Shown here one piece after another: positions 5,707-13,083 of a stretch of 64,000 nt of DNA. The notes under the pieces were generated by a model that saw only the letters and a list, made by a program, of their open reading frames with translations, was not told the origin of the DNA and searched no databases. A program made the translations under genes and the position numbers. The first letter of the stretch is position 1, and each line of letters starts with the position of its first letter. Origin of the DNA: an uncultured Chitinophagaceae bacterium (GTDB lineage: Bacteria; Bacteroidota; Bacteroidia; Chitinophagales; CAIOSU01); NCBI GenBank assembly GCA_964543705.1, contig CAZIZP010000018.1:12107-76106 (forward strand). Reading direction: 5' to 3'.

Positions 5707-5843
5707 AAAACATACTGTAATATTTTTATATGCTGAAAGATAAATTTATTTAAAATTAGCTGTAAAAAAACTGCCATACTTTAGAATGAAATTACACCTA
5801 TAAAATAAAGTCATTTTGGCAGTTTTCAGGGTAGGTATTATTA

Positions 5844-5876
5844 AAGGAAGGCTTCTCTTCGAGAGAAGCCTTCCTT
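5844..5876. repeat. Perfect 15-bp inverted repeat (hairpin or bidirectional terminator)
   Basis: AAGGAAGGCTTCTCT-TCG-AGAGAAGCCTTCCTT. Confidence 0.7.
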
Positions 5877-6030
5877 AATAGATTGGGGGTAAGTTTGTGG
5901 TCGTAGTGTTATTGTTAAAGGCAGAAGAATCTAACGCGCTTTGCCAGGCTACATTCTTGCGCCACTTCGGAAACAACAGGTTTGCGCTAGATTGGGAATA
6001 TCAATATATTTATCAAATCGTTTTAATAAA

Positions 6031-6438
6031 ATGAAATTAATTATGCTTAGAACCTACATTATTTTATTATTTATTTCAACATTAAGAATATCAGATTCAA
6101 AAGCACAATCAACAGTTGATTCTTATTTTCTTGAAATGGAAAGGTTTTTTATAAAACATTCAGAATTAATTTCTGAAAGGTATATTTATTTGAATGGCTC
6201 AGAAAAAATTATTGATATTACAGGTAGTCAAATACCACTAAATGAAGTCAAAGTAACTTACAGATTATATAATAATAGTAAGCATTTAGTTGATTTCTCT
6301 TGTAAAGAAGAAGGTGTGTCTTGTATAAAAAGTGAAGAAGAAAAAACAAGCATAAGCATTGGAATACCCTTTGATACAAAAAAGAGTTGCTACGATTTTA
6401 TTAATATGATTTCGGAATTGAAGAAAAGGTTGAATTAA
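6031..6438 (+). CDS. Hypothetical exported protein
   Basis: ATG at 6031 gives a signal-peptide-like MKLIMLRTYIILLFISTLRISDSKAQ; very AT-rich; no recognisable family. Confidence 0.6.
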   Translation: MKLIMLRTYIILLFISTLRISDSKAQSTVDSYFLEMERFFIKHSELISERYIYLNGSEKIIDITGSQIPLNEVKVTYRLYNNSKHLVDFSCKEEGVSCIKSEEEKTSISIGIPFDTKKSCYDFINMISELKKRLN

Positions 6439-6456
6439 ATTAGATAGATAGGAAAA

Positions 6457-6611
6457 TTATTTTTTGGCAGCTTGCTTTCTTGTGGTTTCTAATTTTTTAT
6501 CCCCTTGGTATCTCTTACGTCCTCATTTCTGATAGTTCCATTAGGAAGTCCATTCTTTTTTTCAAAAGTAGAAACTTTCATATCTGCTCTAGTTTTTTTT
6601 GCTTTAGACAC
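6457..6611 (-). pseudogene. Frameshifted small basic protein (GLPNGTIRNED...DKKLET)
   Basis: GTG at 6611 reads VSKAKKTRADMKVSTFEKKNGLPNGTIRNEDVRDTKG then stops at 6489-6491; a shifted frame continues DKKLETTRKQAAKK* to 6457. The span is 155 nt, one base short of in-frame. Confidence 0.45.
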
Positions 6612-6879
6612 ATCTTTTAACTTTTTCGAACTCCAAATACATTCTTTCTTGTAGTTCTAACGGGATAGATATATTATTTGTGTCAATAACTAACTCAGAA
6701 TTTGTTTTTCCATTTACACCATTTTCATATTTAATTGCCCAAAAACGTGTAAATCCATTAAAGTCATCACTAACGACTGATTTAATATTATCGATTGGAT
6801 TATAGTTGTATTCCGAAAATAATATTTTAAATCTTGATTTTAATTGTTCTTTTAATTTTTTTTGCTCTTCTAAAAACAT
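6604..6879 (-). CDS. Hypothetical protein (91 aa)
   Basis: ORF track 6604..6921; the likely start is MFLEEQ at 6879, just downstream of the hairpin at 6893-6925. Confidence 0.55.
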   Translation of the reverse strand: MFLEEQKKLKEQLKSRFKILFSEYNYNPIDNIKSVVSDDFNGFTRFWAIKYENGVNGKTNSELVIDTNNISIPLELQERMYLEFEKVKRCV

Positions 6880-6892
6880 TGATTTATTATAT

Positions 6893-6925
6893 AGCGATGC
6901 CATCCCTCGGACGGATGGCATCGCT
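6893..6925 (-). terminator. Hairpin following the orphan dnaK-like tail
   Basis: AGCGATGCCATCC-CTCGGAC-GGATGGCATCGCT, a 13-bp perfect stem 15 nt after the tail's stop codon. Confidence 0.65.
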
Positions 6926-6939
6926 GTTTATTTTATTAA

Positions 6940-7044
6940 TTATTTAACCTCCTCATACTCTGCATCGGTAACATTATCGCCATTGCCACCTGCATTGCCA
7001 GCGTTTCCGGCATCGGCCTGTGCACCAACTTGCTCGCCAACACT
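6940..7044 (-). pseudogene. dnaK: Orphan 3' fragment resembling the DnaK C-terminal tail
   Basis: SVGEQVGAQADAGNAGNAGGNGDNVTDAEYEEVK* is preceded in frame by TAA (7045-7047) with no start codon; the ending matches the DxVxDAxYEEVK pattern of Bacteroidota DnaK. Confidence 0.65.
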
Positions 7045-7478
7045 TTAAACAGAATACCCTTGCTGGAAGCAGCTATATCACTTGCAGTATGAGGGCTGGT
7101 ATATTTGTTTTCAGGTAGAAAACCTGCTGTACCTAACAGCAACAACTAATAGTAGTAAGCTAATTTTTTTTGTCTTTCACGCAGGTATAGCCTTGGTTTT
7201 CCAACAGTTCGGAATTTGCAATTTCTTGTTATTTCGAGTGTTTTCATCAAGCAATGAGCGTAGCTGCGGACATTCTGTACGTTTAATGAAATGGCAAGAA
7301 TCCCGACTTACTTTAACCTACTCAAAATGGTAGTTTAGTTCATTCCTAAATTATTTTAGTTTATTACAAGTTTTATTTGGTTACATTCAATAATATCTTC
7401 CTTATAAAGAAACTATTGCAAGGGTCATTTTGTATTTTTAACTAACAATTGAATTTTTAGCCTCTATCAATCGCTATC

Positions 7479-9710
7479 ATGAATAAATTAATAATGCTTT
7501 TTTCGTCAATAGTTATGTTTTATTGCAATGCCCAGGCACAGTTTCTTTTCAACAGAATAAATACCGTTGAAGTTAAAGACACTAATGATGTATTGTATAA
7601 ATTTCCCTGGGTGGGAGGCCTAAATAACCCGCAGTTTTCTTCGGCCGATTTAAATAATGATGGCATAAAAGATTTGGTTGTGTTTAATAAAACCTATACG
7701 GTAAATAACGACCAGGTATTAACTTTTATTAATGGCTCTAATGGTTATGAATATGCTCCCGAATATCAGGCTGGCTTTCCTTATACCGAAATCGATTCTC
7801 CGAAAATTGAGTTTTTTATGCTGATGTATGATTACAACTGCGATGGTATAGAAGATGTTTTCTCATGTACGCCCGGCTACATTCAGGCTTATAAAGGCCG
7901 CTATGATGCCAACAATAAACTTACTTTCGATTACCAAACCTTTTTACAGTTTAATTCCTTTTCGGGCCTGCTGAATATTTTTGTTTCGTCTATTGATATT
8001 CCGGCCATAGTAGATGTAAATGGCGATGGAGATTTAGACGTGCTTACCTTTAATATTTTTGGTTTTGTTATTGAATACTACGAAAATCAGTCGGTAGAAC
8101 TTACCGGCACTTGTGGCGATTCTCTTGTATATGAACTTGTTGATGATTGCTGGGGCGACATTTTTGAAGATGGCTTGCGCAAAGCCGTTCAGTTTAAAGA
8201 TACCTGCGGAACTTTAACAGGCAAAGGGCAACCCCGCCATTCGGGTTCAACTGTTTTGTCGTTTGATGTTGATGCCGATGGAGATAAAGATGTGATGTTG
8301 GGAGATATTTCTTTTACCAACCTGAATATGGTAATTAATGGCGGTACTGCCGATTCGGCAAGAGGCGTTGCTCAGGATACTATTTTCCCATTCTACGACA
8401 CTTCTATTAATGTTCCTATTTTTCCGGTGGGCTTTTATATAGATGTAACCAACGATGGCAGAAATGATTTAATTGTTGCACCCAATACTCCAAAAAATTC
8501 TGAAAATTATTATTGTGCCTGGTTATACGAAAACTATAGTTCCACAGCCGAAGATTCTTTCAGACTTGTAAAAAAGAATTTTCTGGTAGAAGATATGATT
8601 GATGTAGGAGAGGGGGCGCATCCTGTTTTTGTAGATATTAATCAAGATGGTTTAATGGATTTTGTAGTGGGCAATTATGGCTATTATACTACAGGTGTAT
8701 TTTATAAATCGGGATTAGCCTATTTTCAGAATACAGGAACTGCTACCAACCCTTCCTTTAAACTAATCGACCGTGACTTATTCGGTCTTTCAACCCTAAA
8801 CTTTGTAGCCCTGGCACCTGCCTTTGGCGATTTAGATGGCGATGGCGATTTAGATATGATTTTAGGTGAAGAAAGTGGCGAATTACATTATTTTACCAAT
8901 ACTGCCGGTGCAGGTAATTTTATGAATTTCACCTTAACTACGCCCACTTATTTCAGAATAGATATTGGGCAATACAGCACCCCTGTGCTTTATGATGTAA
9001 ATGCTGATGGCTTGTTAGATTTAGTAGTGGGCGAGAGAAGTGGTAATCTGAATTATTTTGTTAACAAGGGTAGTAGTGGTGCAGCCACTTTCTCTCAAAA
9101 TCCTGATAACAGTTTCTTTGGTGAAGTAGATGTTCGCGAGCCGGGCTTAATTACAGGTTTTAGTGCCCCGGTATTTTCAACCTTAGATAGTACGGGTAAA
9201 GTGTATTTGCTTTCCGGCAGCGAATCGAAAGGTATATTGGTATATGACTTTGATGTAAGCAAAGCCGATTCAGGTGTCTTTACCAAATTGTTTGAACGCT
9301 ATTCAAACATAAGAGAAGGCGAAAGAACCAACCTTACCTTGGCTGATATTACCAATGATGGAAAACTGGAAATGCTTACCGGAAACTATAAAGGGGGTGT
9401 GGGTTTCTTTAGCCAAACCGATTCTATTGCCGAACCCCCGTCATCGGTAGCTAATACCGTTTTAAATTTTGTAGATATATATCCCAACCCAACCAGTCAT
9501 AATTTATTTGTAAGGTTTAAAGATATTCCTCAACAAAACTGGGGCATTAATATGTATAATATTTTAGGTAGCGAGGTGTTTACACAAAAAGCTATTGTTA
9601 CACCCGGAACTACTTTGGTAATTAATACTGAAACCTTTGAGAAAGGCATTTATTTCTTAGAGCTTAGCAGCAACAACTACAAAAAAACATACAAAGTCGT
9701 TTTGCAATAA
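7479..9710 (+). CDS. T9SS type A cargo protein with FG-GAP/VCBS-like repeats
   Basis: Signal peptide; repeated DxNxDGxxD motifs; C-terminal YPNPT...GIYFLEL sorting domain. Confidence 0.88.
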   Translation: MNKLIMLFSSIVMFYCNAQAQFLFNRINTVEVKDTNDVLYKFPWVGGLNNPQFSSADLNNDGIKDLVVFNKTYTVNNDQVLTFINGSNGYEYAPEYQAGFPYTEIDSPKIEFFMLMYDYNCDGIEDVFSCTPGYIQAYKGRYDANNKLTFDYQTFLQFNSFSGLLNIFVSSIDIPAIVDVNGDGDLDVLTFNIFGFVIEYYENQSVELTGTCGDSLVYELVDDCWGDIFEDGLRKAVQFKDTCGTLTGKGQPRHSGSTVLSFDVDADGDKDVMLGDISFTNLNMVINGGTADSARGVAQDTIFPFYDTSINVPIFPVGFYIDVTNDGRNDLIVAPNTPKNSENYYCAWLYENYSSTAEDSFRLVKKNFLVEDMIDVGEGAHPVFVDINQDGLMDFVVGNYGYYTTGVFYKSGLAYFQNTGTATNPSFKLIDRDLFGLSTLNFVALAPAFGDLDGDGDLDMILGEESGELHYFTNTAGAGNFMNFTLTTPTYFRIDIGQYSTPVLYDVNADGLLDLVVGERSGNLNYFVNKGSSGAATFSQNPDNSFFGEVDVREPGLITGFSAPVFSTLDSTGKVYLLSGSESKGILVYDFDVSKADSGVFTKLFERYSNIREGERTNLTLADITNDGKLEMLTGNYKGGVGFFSQTDSIAEPPSSVANTVLNFVDIYPNPTSHNLFVRFKDIPQQNWGINMYNILGSEVFTQKAIVTPGTTLVINTETFEKGIYFLELSSNNYKKTYKVVLQ

Positions 9711-9716
9711 TTAATG
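9639..9716 (+). repeat. 78-bp direct repeat, copy 1 (last ~72 nt of the T9SS gene plus flank)
   Basis: GAGAAAGGCATTTATTTCTTAG...AAAGTCGTTTTGCAATAATTAATG matches 10341-10418 with 5 mismatches. Confidence 0.9.
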
Positions 9717-9931
9717 TTAACAGACAAAAATTTTTTTTCAAGTTTTATACTGGAATTAGTTTTTTAAATAAACATTTAATTGTGCTTTTACTATTGGAAT
9801 ACTTTGGTCAATAAAACTTTATTCCCCACCAGCCAGTCTGTAGCTATACATTGAAACGTTCGCGATTAGTGCTATCTATCGAAAACGCTCATTTATTTAG
9901 TTTCAATTTTTTTGTAAACTGAAAATAGGAC

Positions 9932-10225
9932 AAAAATCGTTTTTTGCTGCATTGCTAAAATTTATAATAAAGAAAAAATCGTTTTTTGGTGCATTGTTAA
10001 AACTTGCAACGTATTAAAAATAGGTTTTTGGTACATTCCAAAAATTCGGAATAGGGCAAAAATTGTTTTTTAGTGCATTCCAAAAATTCGGAATAGGGCA
10101 AAAATTGTTTTTTGGTACATTCCAAAAACTCGGAATGGGGTAAAAATCGTTTTTTGTTGCGTTCTGAAAACTCGGAATGGAATAAAAATCGTTTTTCGGT
10201 GTATTCCAAAAACTCGGAATGAGGT
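9932..10225. repeat. Degenerate 42-nt tandem array (7 units plus a decayed flank to ~10260)
   Basis: Units start at 9932, 9974, 10016, 10058, 10100, 10142 and 10184; consensus ~AAAAATCGTTTTTTGGTGCATTCCAAAAATTCGGAATAGGGC; no indels. Confidence 0.9.
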
Positions 10226-10340
10226 AAAAATTAGTTATTGGTTCGTTCTGAATAATAAGAAAAGGGTAGTGGCATACTTGTGGTAATGTGAGGTCTTGTT
10301 AAAAATAATAATTTTGGCAACGGACGATTCGACCAGTTAG

Positions 10341-10418
10341 GAGAAAGGCATTTATTTCTTAGCGTTTAGCGGCAATAACTACAGAAAAACATACAAAGTC
10401 GTTTTGCAATAATTAATG
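10341..10418 (+). repeat. 78-bp direct repeat, copy 2
   Basis: 73/78 identical to 9639-9716. Confidence 0.9.
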
Positions 10419-10439
10419 GTAAAATAATCAATCAGGTTT

Positions 10440-12377
10440 TTACTGTGCTTTTTCATACTCGGCACTGGCCGCTTCCCATTTTTCTATAGCGGCTGTTTGT
10501 TGTTTTTTCAGTGCTTCATATTTCTCGAAAAAATCGGGCTGCTGGGTTAGTTTTTGGTATTGTTCAGCATTTTTCAATTGCTCATCAATGGCAGCAATTT
10601 CTTTATCAATTTTGGCTACTTCTGCCTCTGCTTTTTCAACCGCATTTTTAAGGCGTTTCAGTTCTTTTTCGTCTTCTTTTTTCTTTTCGTATTCGGTATT
10701 ATTTGCTGAAACTTTTTTAATGGTGTTTTTCTGTGCGGCTTCTTTTTCTAATTCTAATGCACGAAAACTTTCCATTTGTTTTTTATCTAAAAACTCATAA
10801 ATATCGCCCAGATGTTCTTTAATTTCTCCGGGTAAAAATTCAAACACTTTATTGGTAAGCCCCTGTAAAAATTCACGGTCGTGCGATACTACTATAATAG
10901 TGCCTTCAAAGGCTTGCATCGCCTGCTTCAACACATCTTTAGCAATCATATCTAAGTGGTTGGTAGGTTCATCGAGAATTAAGAAGTTCAAGGGCTGCAA
11001 TAATAATTTTGCCATTGCCAATCTCGATTTTTCACCACCCGAAAGCACTTTCACTTTTTTATACACATCATCGCCACTGAAAAGAAAAGCACCTAAAAGC
11101 GTTCTTAAATTACCTTCATAATCTGCTGGTGCCGAATGTTCCATTTCTTCCAAAACGGTATTGTTGGGGTGCAGGTTTTCGGTTTGGTGCTGTGCATAGT
11201 AACCCATTAAAACATTATGCCCCAGTTTAATGGTGCCATCATAGGTTAGGTCTCCCGCAATCATGCGCGAAAGGGTAGTTTTACCCATACCGTTTTTACC
11301 TACAAAAGCAATTTTATCGCCACGGTCTATTTCAAAATTGGCGTTATTAATTACATGCTTTTCGCCATAGCTTTTGTTTACGCCTGTTCCTGAAACTACC
11401 GTAACACCTGTTTGTGGCGCTTTCGGAAAACGAATTTTCATGGCTACTACATCTTCTTCCTCAATTTCAATTCTATCTATTTTATCGAGCTTTTTTATGA
11501 GCGATTGCGCAAAAGTGGCTTTCGATGCTTTTGCCCTAAATCGGTCTATATTTCTTTGCAGTTGTGCAATTTCACGCTCTTGGTTTTTTTGAGCGTTTTG
11601 CAACATTTCTTTTCTCTCTGCACGTTGCTCAATATATTTTGAATAAGAGGCGCGGTAGTCATCAATTTCCCCACGCGAAACTTCAATAGTGCGGTTGGTA
11701 ATGGCATCTAAAAATGCTTTATCGTGCGATACCAGCATAATAGCCCCCGGGTATTCTTTCAAAAACGTTTCGAGCCATGTTACCGATTCAATATCTAAGT
11801 GGTTGGTAGGTTCGTCTAATAAAATAAGGTCGGGCTTTTGTAAAAGAATTTTTGCCAGTTCAATACGCATTTGCCAGCCCCCGCTAAATGCCTTTACCGA
11901 TTTACTGAAATCGGCAGTGGTAAAACCTAAACCTCTCAACACTTTTTCAATTTGCTCATCGAGGCTGTAGCCACCTAAATGGCTCAATTGTGTCTCTTTC
12001 TCGCCAAAATCTTCAATCAGCTTCATGTAATCATCGCTCTCGTAATCGGTGCGGGTTTCCAGTTCATGTTGTAAGCGGGCAATTTCTTTTTCCAGTTCCA
12101 GCACTTTGTTAAAAGCGGTGCGGGTTTCTTCGTAAACCGTTTTATCTGAATTGGTAAACAATTCCTGCGGTAGATAACCTATGGTAGTGCCTTTCGGCAT
12201 AGAAACATCAAATTCATCGGCTTTTTGTATGCCAATTAAAATTTTCAGAAGGGTAGATTTTCCGGCACCGTTTCTTCCGGTTAAGCCTATTTTATCGGTT
12301 TCGTTAATTCTGAAGGAAACATCGTTGAACATCGTGCGCCCGCCAAAATGCAGCGCCAGTTTATTAATCATTATCAT
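10440..12377 (-). CDS. ABC-F family ATP-binding protein
   Basis: Two ABC cassettes (GRNGAGKST/FSGGWQMR; GKNGMGKTT/LSGGEKSR), DEPTNHLD, C-terminal coiled coil, no TM segments. Confidence 0.93.
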   Translation of the reverse strand: MIMINKLALHFGGRTMFNDVSFRINETDKIGLTGRNGAGKSTLLKILIGIQKADEFDVSMPKGTTIGYLPQELFTNSDKTVYEETRTAFNKVLELEKEIARLQHELETRTDYESDDYMKLIEDFGEKETQLSHLGGYSLDEQIEKVLRGLGFTTADFSKSVKAFSGGWQMRIELAKILLQKPDLILLDEPTNHLDIESVTWLETFLKEYPGAIMLVSHDKAFLDAITNRTIEVSRGEIDDYRASYSKYIEQRAERKEMLQNAQKNQEREIAQLQRNIDRFRAKASKATFAQSLIKKLDKIDRIEIEEEDVVAMKIRFPKAPQTGVTVVSGTGVNKSYGEKHVINNANFEIDRGDKIAFVGKNGMGKTTLSRMIAGDLTYDGTIKLGHNVLMGYYAQHQTENLHPNNTVLEEMEHSAPADYEGNLRTLLGAFLFSGDDVYKKVKVLSGGEKSRLAMAKLLLQPLNFLILDEPTNHLDMIAKDVLKQAMQAFEGTIIVVSHDREFLQGLTNKVFEFLPGEIKEHLGDIYEFLDKKQMESFRALELEKEAAQKNTIKKVSANNTEYEKKKEDEKELKRLKNAVEKAEAEVAKIDKEIAAIDEQLKNAEQYQKLTQQPDFFEKYEALKKQQTAAIEKWEAASAEYEKAQ

Positions 12378-12462
12378 GGCTGCAAAAATACGTGTATTGT
12401 TACGATTTTGAAGTATGAATATTGAATAGTTGTAATTGAGTTTTAGTATAAGCTGTTTATAC

Positions 12463-13083
12463 TTATATCCATTCGGTAATTATGGCAAAAAACCTTAGCA
12501 ATAATTCGGGCTTAAATAACAAGGGAAATACAAAACCAAATACAGCACCAAAAAAGTGAGCATCGTGTCCAATATTGTCAATATTTTGTTTCGACATGTA
12601 TGCTGAATATGCCAGATACAATGGCCCGAAGATAAACGCAGGTATGCCTATGGGAATGAAAATAATATACAACTTGTTAGTAGGCTCAAATAGTATTGAA
12701 GCAAAAACAACAGCCGATACTGCACCTGATGCACCTAAGCTTGCATAACTATAATTGTCTTTATGCTTTATGAATGAAACCGTTTCTGAAATGGGAATTG
12801 CTAATATATACATGGCTATAAACAAAGCTGTTCCTGCCGGATAAAATACTCCTGAAAAATATTGCTCGGTTATATAACCAAACATCCATAGCACATACAT
12901 GTTCAACAATAAGTGTATCCAACTACCATGAATTAAACCGCTGGTTAAAAATCTGAAATATTGAGAACTATCACGAGCAACGGTGTAAGGCGAGAAAATA
13001 AATTTCCTTAATAAATTTTCATTCTGAAACGCAGCGATGCTTATAATACAAGTGATAATAATTATAATAACGGTTATTGACAT
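12463..13083 (-). CDS. Rhomboid family intramembrane serine protease
   Basis: RFLTSGLIHGSWIHLLLNM, GASGAVSA, AHFFGAVFG; ATG at 13083. Confidence 0.92.
   Translation of the reverse strand: MSITVIIIIITCIISIAAFQNENLLRKFIFSPYTVARDSSQYFRFLTSGLIHGSWIHLLLNMYVLWMFGYITEQYFSGVFYPAGTALFIAMYILAIPISETVSFIKHKDNYSYASLGASGAVSAVVFASILFEPTNKLYIIFIPIGIPAFIFGPLYLAYSAYMSKQNIDNIGHDAHFFGAVFGFVFPLLFKPELLLRFFAIITEWI

Follow-up and report, generated by a model that had tools for sequence, protein, structure and literature searches.

We studied a 64,000-nucleotide (nt) stretch of DNA from an uncultured Bacteroidota bacterium (here called the window; part of contig C18), in particular the tight junction between two convergent genes, one coding for a type IX secretion system (T9SS) cargo protein and the other for an ABC-F type ATPase. 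At this junction, the end of the T9SS gene is present twice, on either side of 620 bp. We consider it probable that these 620 bp, which are non-coding, were inserted together with an 82-bp duplication of the target, i.e., by the type of rearrangement called "insertion with long target duplication." An integrase or transposase is not involved, as far as can be told from the absence of ORFs in the insert and of PF00589 matches on C18 (transposase families were not searched genome-wide). The assembly to which the window belongs, and which was searched throughout (G000), comprises 3.72 Mb in 55 contigs.

A duplicated gene end and its empty site

The two copies of the direct repeat (Table 1) are identical at 76 of 82 positions (93%), with 6 mismatches, and lie 702 nt apart, start to start. 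They consist of the final 72 nt of the T9SS cargo gene, including the TAA stop codon, plus 10 nt downstream. An earlier examination of the letters of the window (the sequence-only reading) had claimed a gene-tail repeat of 78 bp with 5 mismatches at 10341; the repeat is real and slightly longer. In a BLAST search of the whole assembly, each copy matched only its partner (E = 4e-29). Past the 82 nt, no similarity was detected, the adjoining 140 nt scoring no better than shuffled sequence in local alignments, and the edges of the similarity are abrupt. A larger old duplication behind the repeat was rejected on the grounds that nothing similar extends beyond the repeat ends.

The gene that ends with the first copy codes for a protein of 743 amino acids (aa) from the first ATG (738 aa in the public-record annotation), with Pfam matches to FG-GAP_3 (6.9e-30) and Por_Secre_tail (6.4e-13; profile positions 1 to 74 of 75). 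Its sorting domain is a complete type-A T9SS domain, and a protein search retrieved orthologues at 92% and 80% aa identity. The second copy lies within no ORF and is directly preceded by an in-frame TAG (10338 to 10340).

The main evidence for an insertion came from two contigs of a sister lineage (87 to 88% nucleotide identity), derived from different samples and obtained by protein search and contig look-ups. Both L054 (Logan ERR6201900) and L065 (ENA ERZ4756921) carry a single tail, with 30 and 31 nt, respectively, between the stop codons of the T9SS and ABC-F genes. Window positions 7392 to 9712 and 10341 to 12636 (to 14400 for L065) both align to these contigs and overlap there on one 74-nt tail, which corresponds to 9639 to 9712 as well as to 10341 to 10414. 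The ABC-F gene is the right-hand neighbor at both the empty and the filled site, and further on, L065 has rhomboid and CitMHS-type transporter genes, as in the window. Given that L054 and L065 carry a single tail that aligns with both copies, the 620 bp can be regarded as having been inserted at a protein gene's 3' end. This bears out the integration proposed by the sequence-only reading, which had suggested a search of related genomes for an empty site or a longer element; L054 and L065 are empty, and a longer version of the insert was not found. Scans of genome contigs and metagenome contigs for the empty site returned only one truncated same-genus contig and distant homologues, and the genomes of the same genus (G001 and G002) show no conserved synteny at the T9SS gene. 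Among these few sequences, the junction was empty in the two sister-lineage contigs and filled in near-identical strains, with no other occupant.

These near-identical strains are represented by three Logan contigs from independent assemblies (L066 to L068; 99.6 to 100% identity to the window), all of which stop at base 9712. The tail copies have an exact 34-mer in common (9683 to 9716), and the preceding base, 9682, is copy specific. Since the last 31-mer that contains the copy 1-specific base ends at 9712, a k = 31 unitig coming from the gene ends there if and only if the second copy is present in the sample. Together with the 6 mismatches and the absence of N bases from the repeat and insert region, these breaks argue that the duplication is not an artifact of one assembly, a possibility that had already been judged unlikely from the letters of the window.

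We also compared the copies with each other and with the sister lineage as the outgroup. Over the 72 coding nt, copies 1 and 2 differ at 5 positions, while each differs from the outgroup tail at 17 to 18, and 15 bases are shared and derived. The few differences and the 15 shared-derived bases place the duplication after the split from the L054/L065 lineage and derive it from window-like sequence. Between the functional orthologous tails (window versus outgroup), 12 changed codons are synonymous and 4 are nonsynonymous, compared with 1 and 4, respectively, between copies 1 and 2 (under the functional ratio, the probability of 4 or more nonsynonymous codons out of 5 is P = 0.016). When polarized by the outgroup, the changes in copy 2 are E>A, S>G, and probably L>F, and those in copy 1 are only AAT>AAC (synonymous) and R>K. 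In all, copy 1 shows two to three changes specific to its lineage, each of them synonymous or conservative. As judged from these changes, copy 1 is the working gene end, under protein-level constraint, and copy 2 is a dead pseudo-tail that has drifted by ca. 4% and is closed by the in-frame TAG. Sliding identity to L054 along the T9SS gene, inspected for a recombination breakpoint, fell from ca. 0.90 to 0.80 in the last 500 nt, and this fall coincides with the less constrained linker and C-terminal domain region.

Composition of the insert and relatives of its array

The insert (9721 to 10340) has a GC content of 0.28 to 0.31, compared with ca. 0.40 in the flanking genes. It contains no credible ORF, the only one (9997 to 10209, minus strand) being the repeat array read through, and no coding remnant was found in six frames. 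The statement of the sequence-only reading that there is no real gene between the copies, only a 42-nt array of 7 units, is therefore correct. Table 1 lists the parts of the insert together with the adjacent genes and the comparable loci of the genome described below.

Table 1. Features of the T9SS/ABC-F junction (window coordinates) and genes with a tail copy downstream in cis (contig coordinates)
Feature	Location	Strand	Repeat (nt)	Insert (nt)	Basis or content of insert
FG-GAP/VCBS-repeat T9SS cargo gene, intact, ending with repeat copy 1	7479-9710	+			ORF
Repeat copy 1, apparently functional gene tail (72 nt, TAA at 9708-9710) plus 10 nt downstream	9639-9720	+			BLAST, alignment
Insert left end, 105 nt, AT rich, unique	9721-9825	+			No match in BLAST of 9721-9923; GC 0.27-0.28
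Module A ("leader"), ca. 110 nt	9826-9935	+			nhmmer, E 1e-28 to 3e-33
Spacer-less 42-nt array, 7 full units plus truncated eighth	9924-10259	+			TRF, unit table
Truncated start of module B (motif GGTAGTGG), GGGTAGTGG	10264-10272	+			Sequence comparison
Insert right end, 68 nt, unique	10273-10340	+			Ends with the TAG, in frame with the pseudo-tail
Repeat copy 2, apparent orphan pseudo-tail in original context	10341-10422	+			27 nt from the ABC-F stop
ABC-F type ATPase gene, 645 aa, convergent with T9SS gene	10440-12377	-			Pfam ABC_tran (twice) and ABC_tran_Xtn
Large alpha-2-macroglobulin-like gene	C5 (113341-114408)		129	810	231-aa ORF
406-aa gene	C12 (79925-80464)		47	446	No ORF of ≥150 aa
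252-aa gene	C14 (100199-103042)		118	2,608	IS3-type transposase and 200-aa ORF
T9SS cargo gene (main locus)	C18		82	620	A-array-B module
294-aa membrane protein	C19 (38508-42425)		153	3,612	Pyruvate carboxylase
lysA	C25 (43606-48068)		164	4,135	Three ORFs, including AbiU2-like HEPN protein; A-B module; 21-nt arrays
ruvB	C28 (10053-11366)		105	1,104	No ORF of ≥150 aa

Module A is also present at C11:91276-91395, at C25:45949-45828 (minus strand), and on contig C10 of the same-genus genome G001. In these three places, it passes straight into module B (...TGAAAGTTTTGGTAGTGGTAAAAGGCACA...), and the array of the window sits exactly at this A|B junction. TRF placed the array at 9924 to 10231 (period, 42; 7.3 copies; 79% match), and a truncated eighth unit reaches ca. 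10259. In C1, C11, C25, and G001, module B goes on as GGTAGTGGTAAAAGGCACAAGAACC.... On C1, an array of the same family stands before B, followed by a double-hairpin module, C, of which there are at least 18 copies. As far as these alignments can tell, the cargo derives from a paralogous locus, from which part of an intergenic module specific to this lineage (leader A, 42-nt array, and motif B) was copied, and it is best described as a mosaic, not as a self-contained mobile unit. No terminal inverted repeats were seen, and the ends of the insert (CAGACAAAAATT... and ...CGACCAGTTAG) are not complementary. RNA folding of leader A plus B gave a z value of -0.77, without compensatory pairs among the four copies, and Rfam yielded nothing but one tRNA in the window at the gathering threshold, in 9600 to 10500 at an E value of ≤10, and in the four paralogous loci at an E value of ≤0.1.

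Each 42-nt unit contains two dyads, CAAAAA-TYG-TTTTTG and ATTCC-N8-GGAAT, centered at unit positions 15 and 36.5, which gives alternating spacings of 21.5 and 20.5 nt. From unit to unit, ATTCC/GGAAT covaries with ATTGT/ACAAT, a compensatory change that would suit either a hairpin or a site for dimer binding. The array and its 3' flank (9910 to 10270) are 79 to 81% identical to C1:174895-175274, and both arrays have the same order, that is, two ATTGT...ACAAT-like units, then ATTCC-N8-GGAAT units, and the same truncated unit (...TTCTGAATWATAAGAAAAGGG). The two can thus be considered paralogous as whole arrays, with one unit of difference. When the unit of the window array was compared by eye with that of another array located at 56.3 kb of the same window, ca. 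24 of 42 positions were alike. On C11, A-B is followed by an array of a third type (21+21 unit).

This C11 array (C11:91480-91815; L027 4481-4816) is a spacer-less 42-nt array of 21+21 sub-units (GGAACGTACGCTCGGAGTTTTGG / TACGTACGCTCCACAAAAT). It lies ca. 60 nt past the A-B module, which begins at the stop codon of a DUF4276 gene. The sister array on C1 (C1:174895-175387; L029 4396-4887) is located 112 nt upstream of a 438-aa FG-GAP/T9SS gene and faces away from it. The genome contains no fewer than 150 T9SS-tail genes, and the chance that an array adjoins one of them is ca. 10% per locus, so that an association between arrays and T9SS genes may be real. More generally, the intergenic DNA of this lineage is rich in 7-nt and 21-nt tandem repeats, such as CTGTAATCGGTGCAGC... 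(period, 21) and AACTTAAAACTTAAAGC heptads (L054 1-527 and dozens of contigs).

As regards partner genes, the array of the insert is followed by no gene. The 319-aa protein encoded downstream of the 56.3-kb array found only itself in the genome by tblastn, and it has no relation to the gene located downstream of the C1 array. Neither the C1 and C11 arrays nor the A-B copy on C11 has flanking direct repeats or gene-end duplications. The genome-wide scan for gene tails found none beside the 56.3-kb array, whose flanking repeats were not scanned separately.

Orphan gene tails and the origin of the insertion

A census of the whole genome for short solitary copies of gene pieces in non-coding DNA was carried out with 2,451 genes, each called as the longest ORF and no shorter than 150 aa. 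After removal of N-gap artifacts and of k-mer overlaps between contig ends, fragments with at least 40 nt of coding sequence running through the stop codon were classified as orphan tails. The result was 15 orphan tails versus 21 internal fragments. Given that internal positions are ca. 28 times more numerous, this amounts to a ca. 20-fold enrichment of tails. Seven of the 15 were found in cis, on the same strand and 0.45 to 4.1 kb downstream of their own gene, with repeats of 47 to 164 nt and a cargo ranging from nothing to a pyruvate carboxylase (Table 1, where gene names at these loci are a reading of the sequences, profile tested only for the AbiU2-like protein); the other eight are in trans. 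An eighth cis candidate (C30:10301-10400) was discarded as an assembly artifact, a scaffold gap of 100 N with a perfect 55-nt repeat on either side, due to k-mer overlap between the contig ends. The insert ends of the seven cis cases have no motif in common, and none of the 7 PF00589 recombinase genes of the genome is on C18 or near any tail duplication. An empty-site comparison for the lysA duplication (C25) met with broken synteny in relatives.

Pooled over the seven cis pairs, mismatches at codon positions 1, 2, and 3 numbered 16, 12, and 53 (chi-square p = 6e-9). Along similar lines, changed codons were mostly synonymous (synonymous/nonsynonymous) in lysA (11/1), ruvB (8/0), the C14 gene (14/4), and an orphan tail of dnaK (6/1). 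This bias toward third positions suggests that most orphan tails diverged as working gene ends, and it indicates that they are alleles from diverged lineages joined by recombination and not decayed in-situ copies. The main locus appears to be the exception, with a downstream tail that looks decayed.

One such tail is found near the junction itself. The sequence-only reading had counted a second gene-tail duplication within 4 kb, and this is also real: window positions 6940 to 7039 (minus strand) are 92% identical to the true end of dnaK on C2 (C2:100742-100841), with 7 of the 8 nucleotide differences at third positions. Back to back with it (6940 to 7117 in total, with an 18-nt overlap at the inner ends) lies the tail of a 292-aa gene (7022 to 7117, plus strand), 86 to 88% identical to the ends of C18:75586-76464 and C1:41908-42786. 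The whole region from lpxD to the T9SS gene (5795 to 7312) is a patchwork of 85- to 180-nt pieces that also occur elsewhere. The pieces 5795 to 5970 and 7227 to 7312 are adjacent at C2:103113-103381, ca. 2.3 kb downstream of dnaK, and in the window they are 1.26 kb apart, with one of them inverted. In the usual operon order, lpxD is followed by lpxC/fabZ. These genes do not follow lpxD in the window, and in the 80% relative L055, they stand upstream of the T9SS orthologue. The stretch as a whole has the look of a recombination hotspot. On L066 (Logan SRR14492200), a 140-nt repeat at 2430 to 2569, present at window positions 7063 to 7201 and at C1:258270-258409, joins the C1 sucC region (99.7%) to the T9SS gene of the window (99.6%), which reflects either a strain with another arrangement upstream of this gene or a chimeric join at the repeat.

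In the scenario that we favor for the junction, a 620-bp non-coding piece would have entered it, and the duplicated target would be the final 24 codons of the gene (stop codon included) and the next 10 bp. Incoming or ectopic DNA would recombine while anchored by homology in the gene end, and the second junction would be illegitimate. This could take place by homology-facilitated illegitimate recombination, with one crossover in the gene and one illegitimate junction, or by a Campbell-type single crossover of a circle that carries a "tail" arm. Selection would keep only the products that leave the gene whole, which would be the reason why it is tails that are duplicated. The mainly third-position differences of the orphan tails at other loci suggest anchored recombination with a diverged relative, and the strongly scrambled synteny among close relatives (the matches of one 80%-identical contig are spread over five contigs of this genome) is in line with a lineage whose homology is frequently one sided. 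At the main locus, where the copies began nearly identical, the donor would have been this genome itself or a strain very close to it, or else in-situ template switching or a staggered break would have taken place.

Several points weigh against this account. The only lineage with an empty site is 12% diverged, and a precise deletion between the repeats is formally possible there, although the 15 shared-derived sites speak against an early date of the duplication. No donor of the 620 bp was found, and the two insert ends (105 and 68 nt) matched nothing else in this genome or in those of 18 family members. Mismatches at the main locus are distributed 2, 2, and 1 over the three codon positions, so the signature of allelic recombination is absent here, and the mechanism of recombination with a relative is extrapolated from the other loci. 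In addition, the longest-ORF gene set of the census is crude, and its counts are small.

Among the alternatives, a purely in-situ event, in which a template switch or a repaired staggered break copied the 620 bp from the same chromosome and re-copied 82 bp with neither foreign DNA nor a homologous anchor, seems unlikely. It would agree with the near identity of the copies at the start (the 15 shared-derived sites), with the purely decay-type changes of copy 2, with a cargo made of the genome's own module types, and with the neighboring patchwork of pieces from other loci, including two gene tails. However, no present-day donor locus has the unique ends of the insert, and the remaining orphan tails diverged like functional alleles, unlike in-situ copies. 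We regard as quite unlikely a decayed integrative element, as proposed by the sequence-only reading (integration followed by loss of cargo), that is, an island of a tyrosine or serine recombinase whose attP mimicked the end of the T9SS gene, with its genes lost, the tails representing attL and attR, and the 620 bp being debris. Direct repeats that restore the 3' end of a gene are the classical att signature, and the insert has a low GC content, but neither a recombinase gene or fragment (six frames) nor a PF00589 match on the contig was detected. Moreover, the insert is made of resident intergenic modules, the seven duplications, with their different repeats and one of them around pyruvate carboxylase, would need many different integrases, and the substitution pattern fits a copy initially identical to the host tail and not a foreign attP arm.

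The sequence-only reading had also raised another possibility, namely, that the arrays move and that the duplication marks a mobile array element. In this explanation, leader, 42-nt array, and B module would be a non-autonomous element moved in trans, inserting behind genes and duplicating their ends. The module is present at 4 to 5 loci, all of them intergenic. Of the three leader A copies, two are inside tail-bracketed inserts (the main locus and the 4.1-kb insert behind lysA on C25), and the C11 copy begins right at a stop codon. Nonetheless, the copies are only 70 to 80% alike and have no common ends, and the module lies 105 nt and 68 nt inside the main insert and, on the opposite strand, in the middle of the C25 insert. 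The C1 and C11 arrays, checked for gene-end duplications on their flanks, have none, no terminal inverted repeats are apparent, and the U1-type array was not found in 17 other family genomes. Five of the seven tail-bracketed inserts are without such a module, and tail duplications of this kind bracket quite different cargo at the six other loci. All this makes a mobile element highly unlikely, and the claim that the arrays move doubtful, given that the array would have arrived inside an arbitrary fragment by a generic process. Scarcely credible is the remnant of a tandem paralogue, in which a second copy of the T9SS gene arose in tandem, with the array as part of its promoter region, and later lost nearly all of its length by deletion. 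Such a history would recall the same-family array on C1, 112 nt upstream of another FG-GAP/T9SS gene, and the in-frame TAG at the junction. Yet there is nothing like A-array-B upstream of the existing gene, the C1 array faces away from its T9SS gene, the similarity stops 10 nt past the stop codon, where the original context resumes, and three events would be needed where one suffices.

To return to insertion with long target duplication, a broader version can also be imagined. In it, A-array-B would be functional, acting in cis without a partner gene, and would offer a dimeric DNA-binding protein a docking lattice with four helical turns in every unit. It would have spread to intergenic sites, including convergent gene ends, by integrase-free insertion of this kind, which would also be a major route of gene gain anchored in the 3' ends of resident genes with DNA from diverged relatives. 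We consider this combination quite unlikely.

Comparison with known systems

The array resembles CRISPR arrays in its regularly spaced palindromic repeats behind an AT-rich "leader." A CRISPR array was rejected since there are no spacers (the period of 42 equals the unit length) and the best Rfam match, CRISPR-DR56, reached 19 bits versus a threshold of 35 (E = 0.8). No cas genes were present among the flanking ORFs scanned against Pfam, and no search was aimed at cas genes in the window. An integrase island was discarded for want of a recombinase gene at the element end (six frames and PF00589 scan), and so was a transposon or miniature inverted-repeat element (MITE), which is at odds with the lack of terminal inverted repeats, the single-copy insert ends, and a duplication of 82 bp here and 47 to 164 bp elsewhere, i.e., neither short nor of fixed length.

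The BIME/REP sequences of enterobacteria are mosaic extragenic palindromic repeats between genes. The modules described here are similar in that short palindromic elements stand in varying combinations between genes, often at convergent ends, and module C with its many copies is a case in point. In contrast, the units here have 42 nt, a strict head-to-tail register, and two dyads each, and there is no sequence similarity. The array does have the features of the 42-nt double-palindrome arrays of Bacteroidota, with spacer-less units and two dyads about two helical turns apart, and no partner gene (a relative of the 319-aa protein) follows immediately downstream of it. A member of this undescribed family can therefore sit, apparently inert, between convergent genes, which bears on the need for a partner gene.

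Homology-facilitated illegitimate recombination is reportedly a subject of work by de Vries and Wackernagel in 2002. One anchor and one illegitimate junction would give the order gene, donor tail, donor flank, and recipient tail. Such recombination would account for the variable repeat length, the arbitrary cargo, and the synonymous-site differences of the lysA, ruvB, and dnaK tails, while the tails of the main locus are unlike diverged alleles. PMC3240628 reports the process from bacteria that are naturally transformable.

"Insertion with long target duplication" was defined for restriction-modification genes from the comparison of genomes (Furuta, Abe and Kobayashi 2010, Nucleic Acids Res 38:2428, PMC2853133), where it is traced to Nobusato et al. 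2000 (reference 37 therein). The definition requires that the repeat exceed 30 bp, that a relative have the site empty, and that no other mobile element be present, and it leaves the mechanism open. The repeats of the published cases range from 46 to about 420 bp, and those of Haemophilus influenzae overlap gene 3' ends (PMC2853133). The locus studied here is alike in all these respects: the uninterrupted single sequence of a relative aligns with both repeats, the repeat (82 bp) is longer than 30 bp and exceeds by far the duplications made by transposons, the insert (620 bp) is below the 20-kb limit, the repeat is unique to the locus (two copies) and overlaps the 3' end of a gene, and no mobile-element gene was found in the insert, within the scope of the searches given at the outset. 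The cargo differs, being non-coding instead of a restriction-modification complex, which is a feature of the original data set and not of the type of rearrangement. A purely non-coding cargo would imply that the process needs no cargo-encoded function, for instance, a restriction enzyme that cuts the target. The seven cis and eight trans tails, with their third-position bias, favor recombination anchored in gene ends over an enzyme encoded by the element. The locus is thus a clean natural case, with empty and filled sites and a datable pseudo-tail, of a known way in which bacterial genomes gain DNA. Further differences are that the event is old, with repeats 7% diverged and the downstream copy decaying, and that seven such events are present in one genome, that of an uncultured, Chitinophagales-like member of the Bacteroidota. 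With these differences, and on the strength of the sequence comparison, the locus appears to match the known class of insertion with long target duplication.

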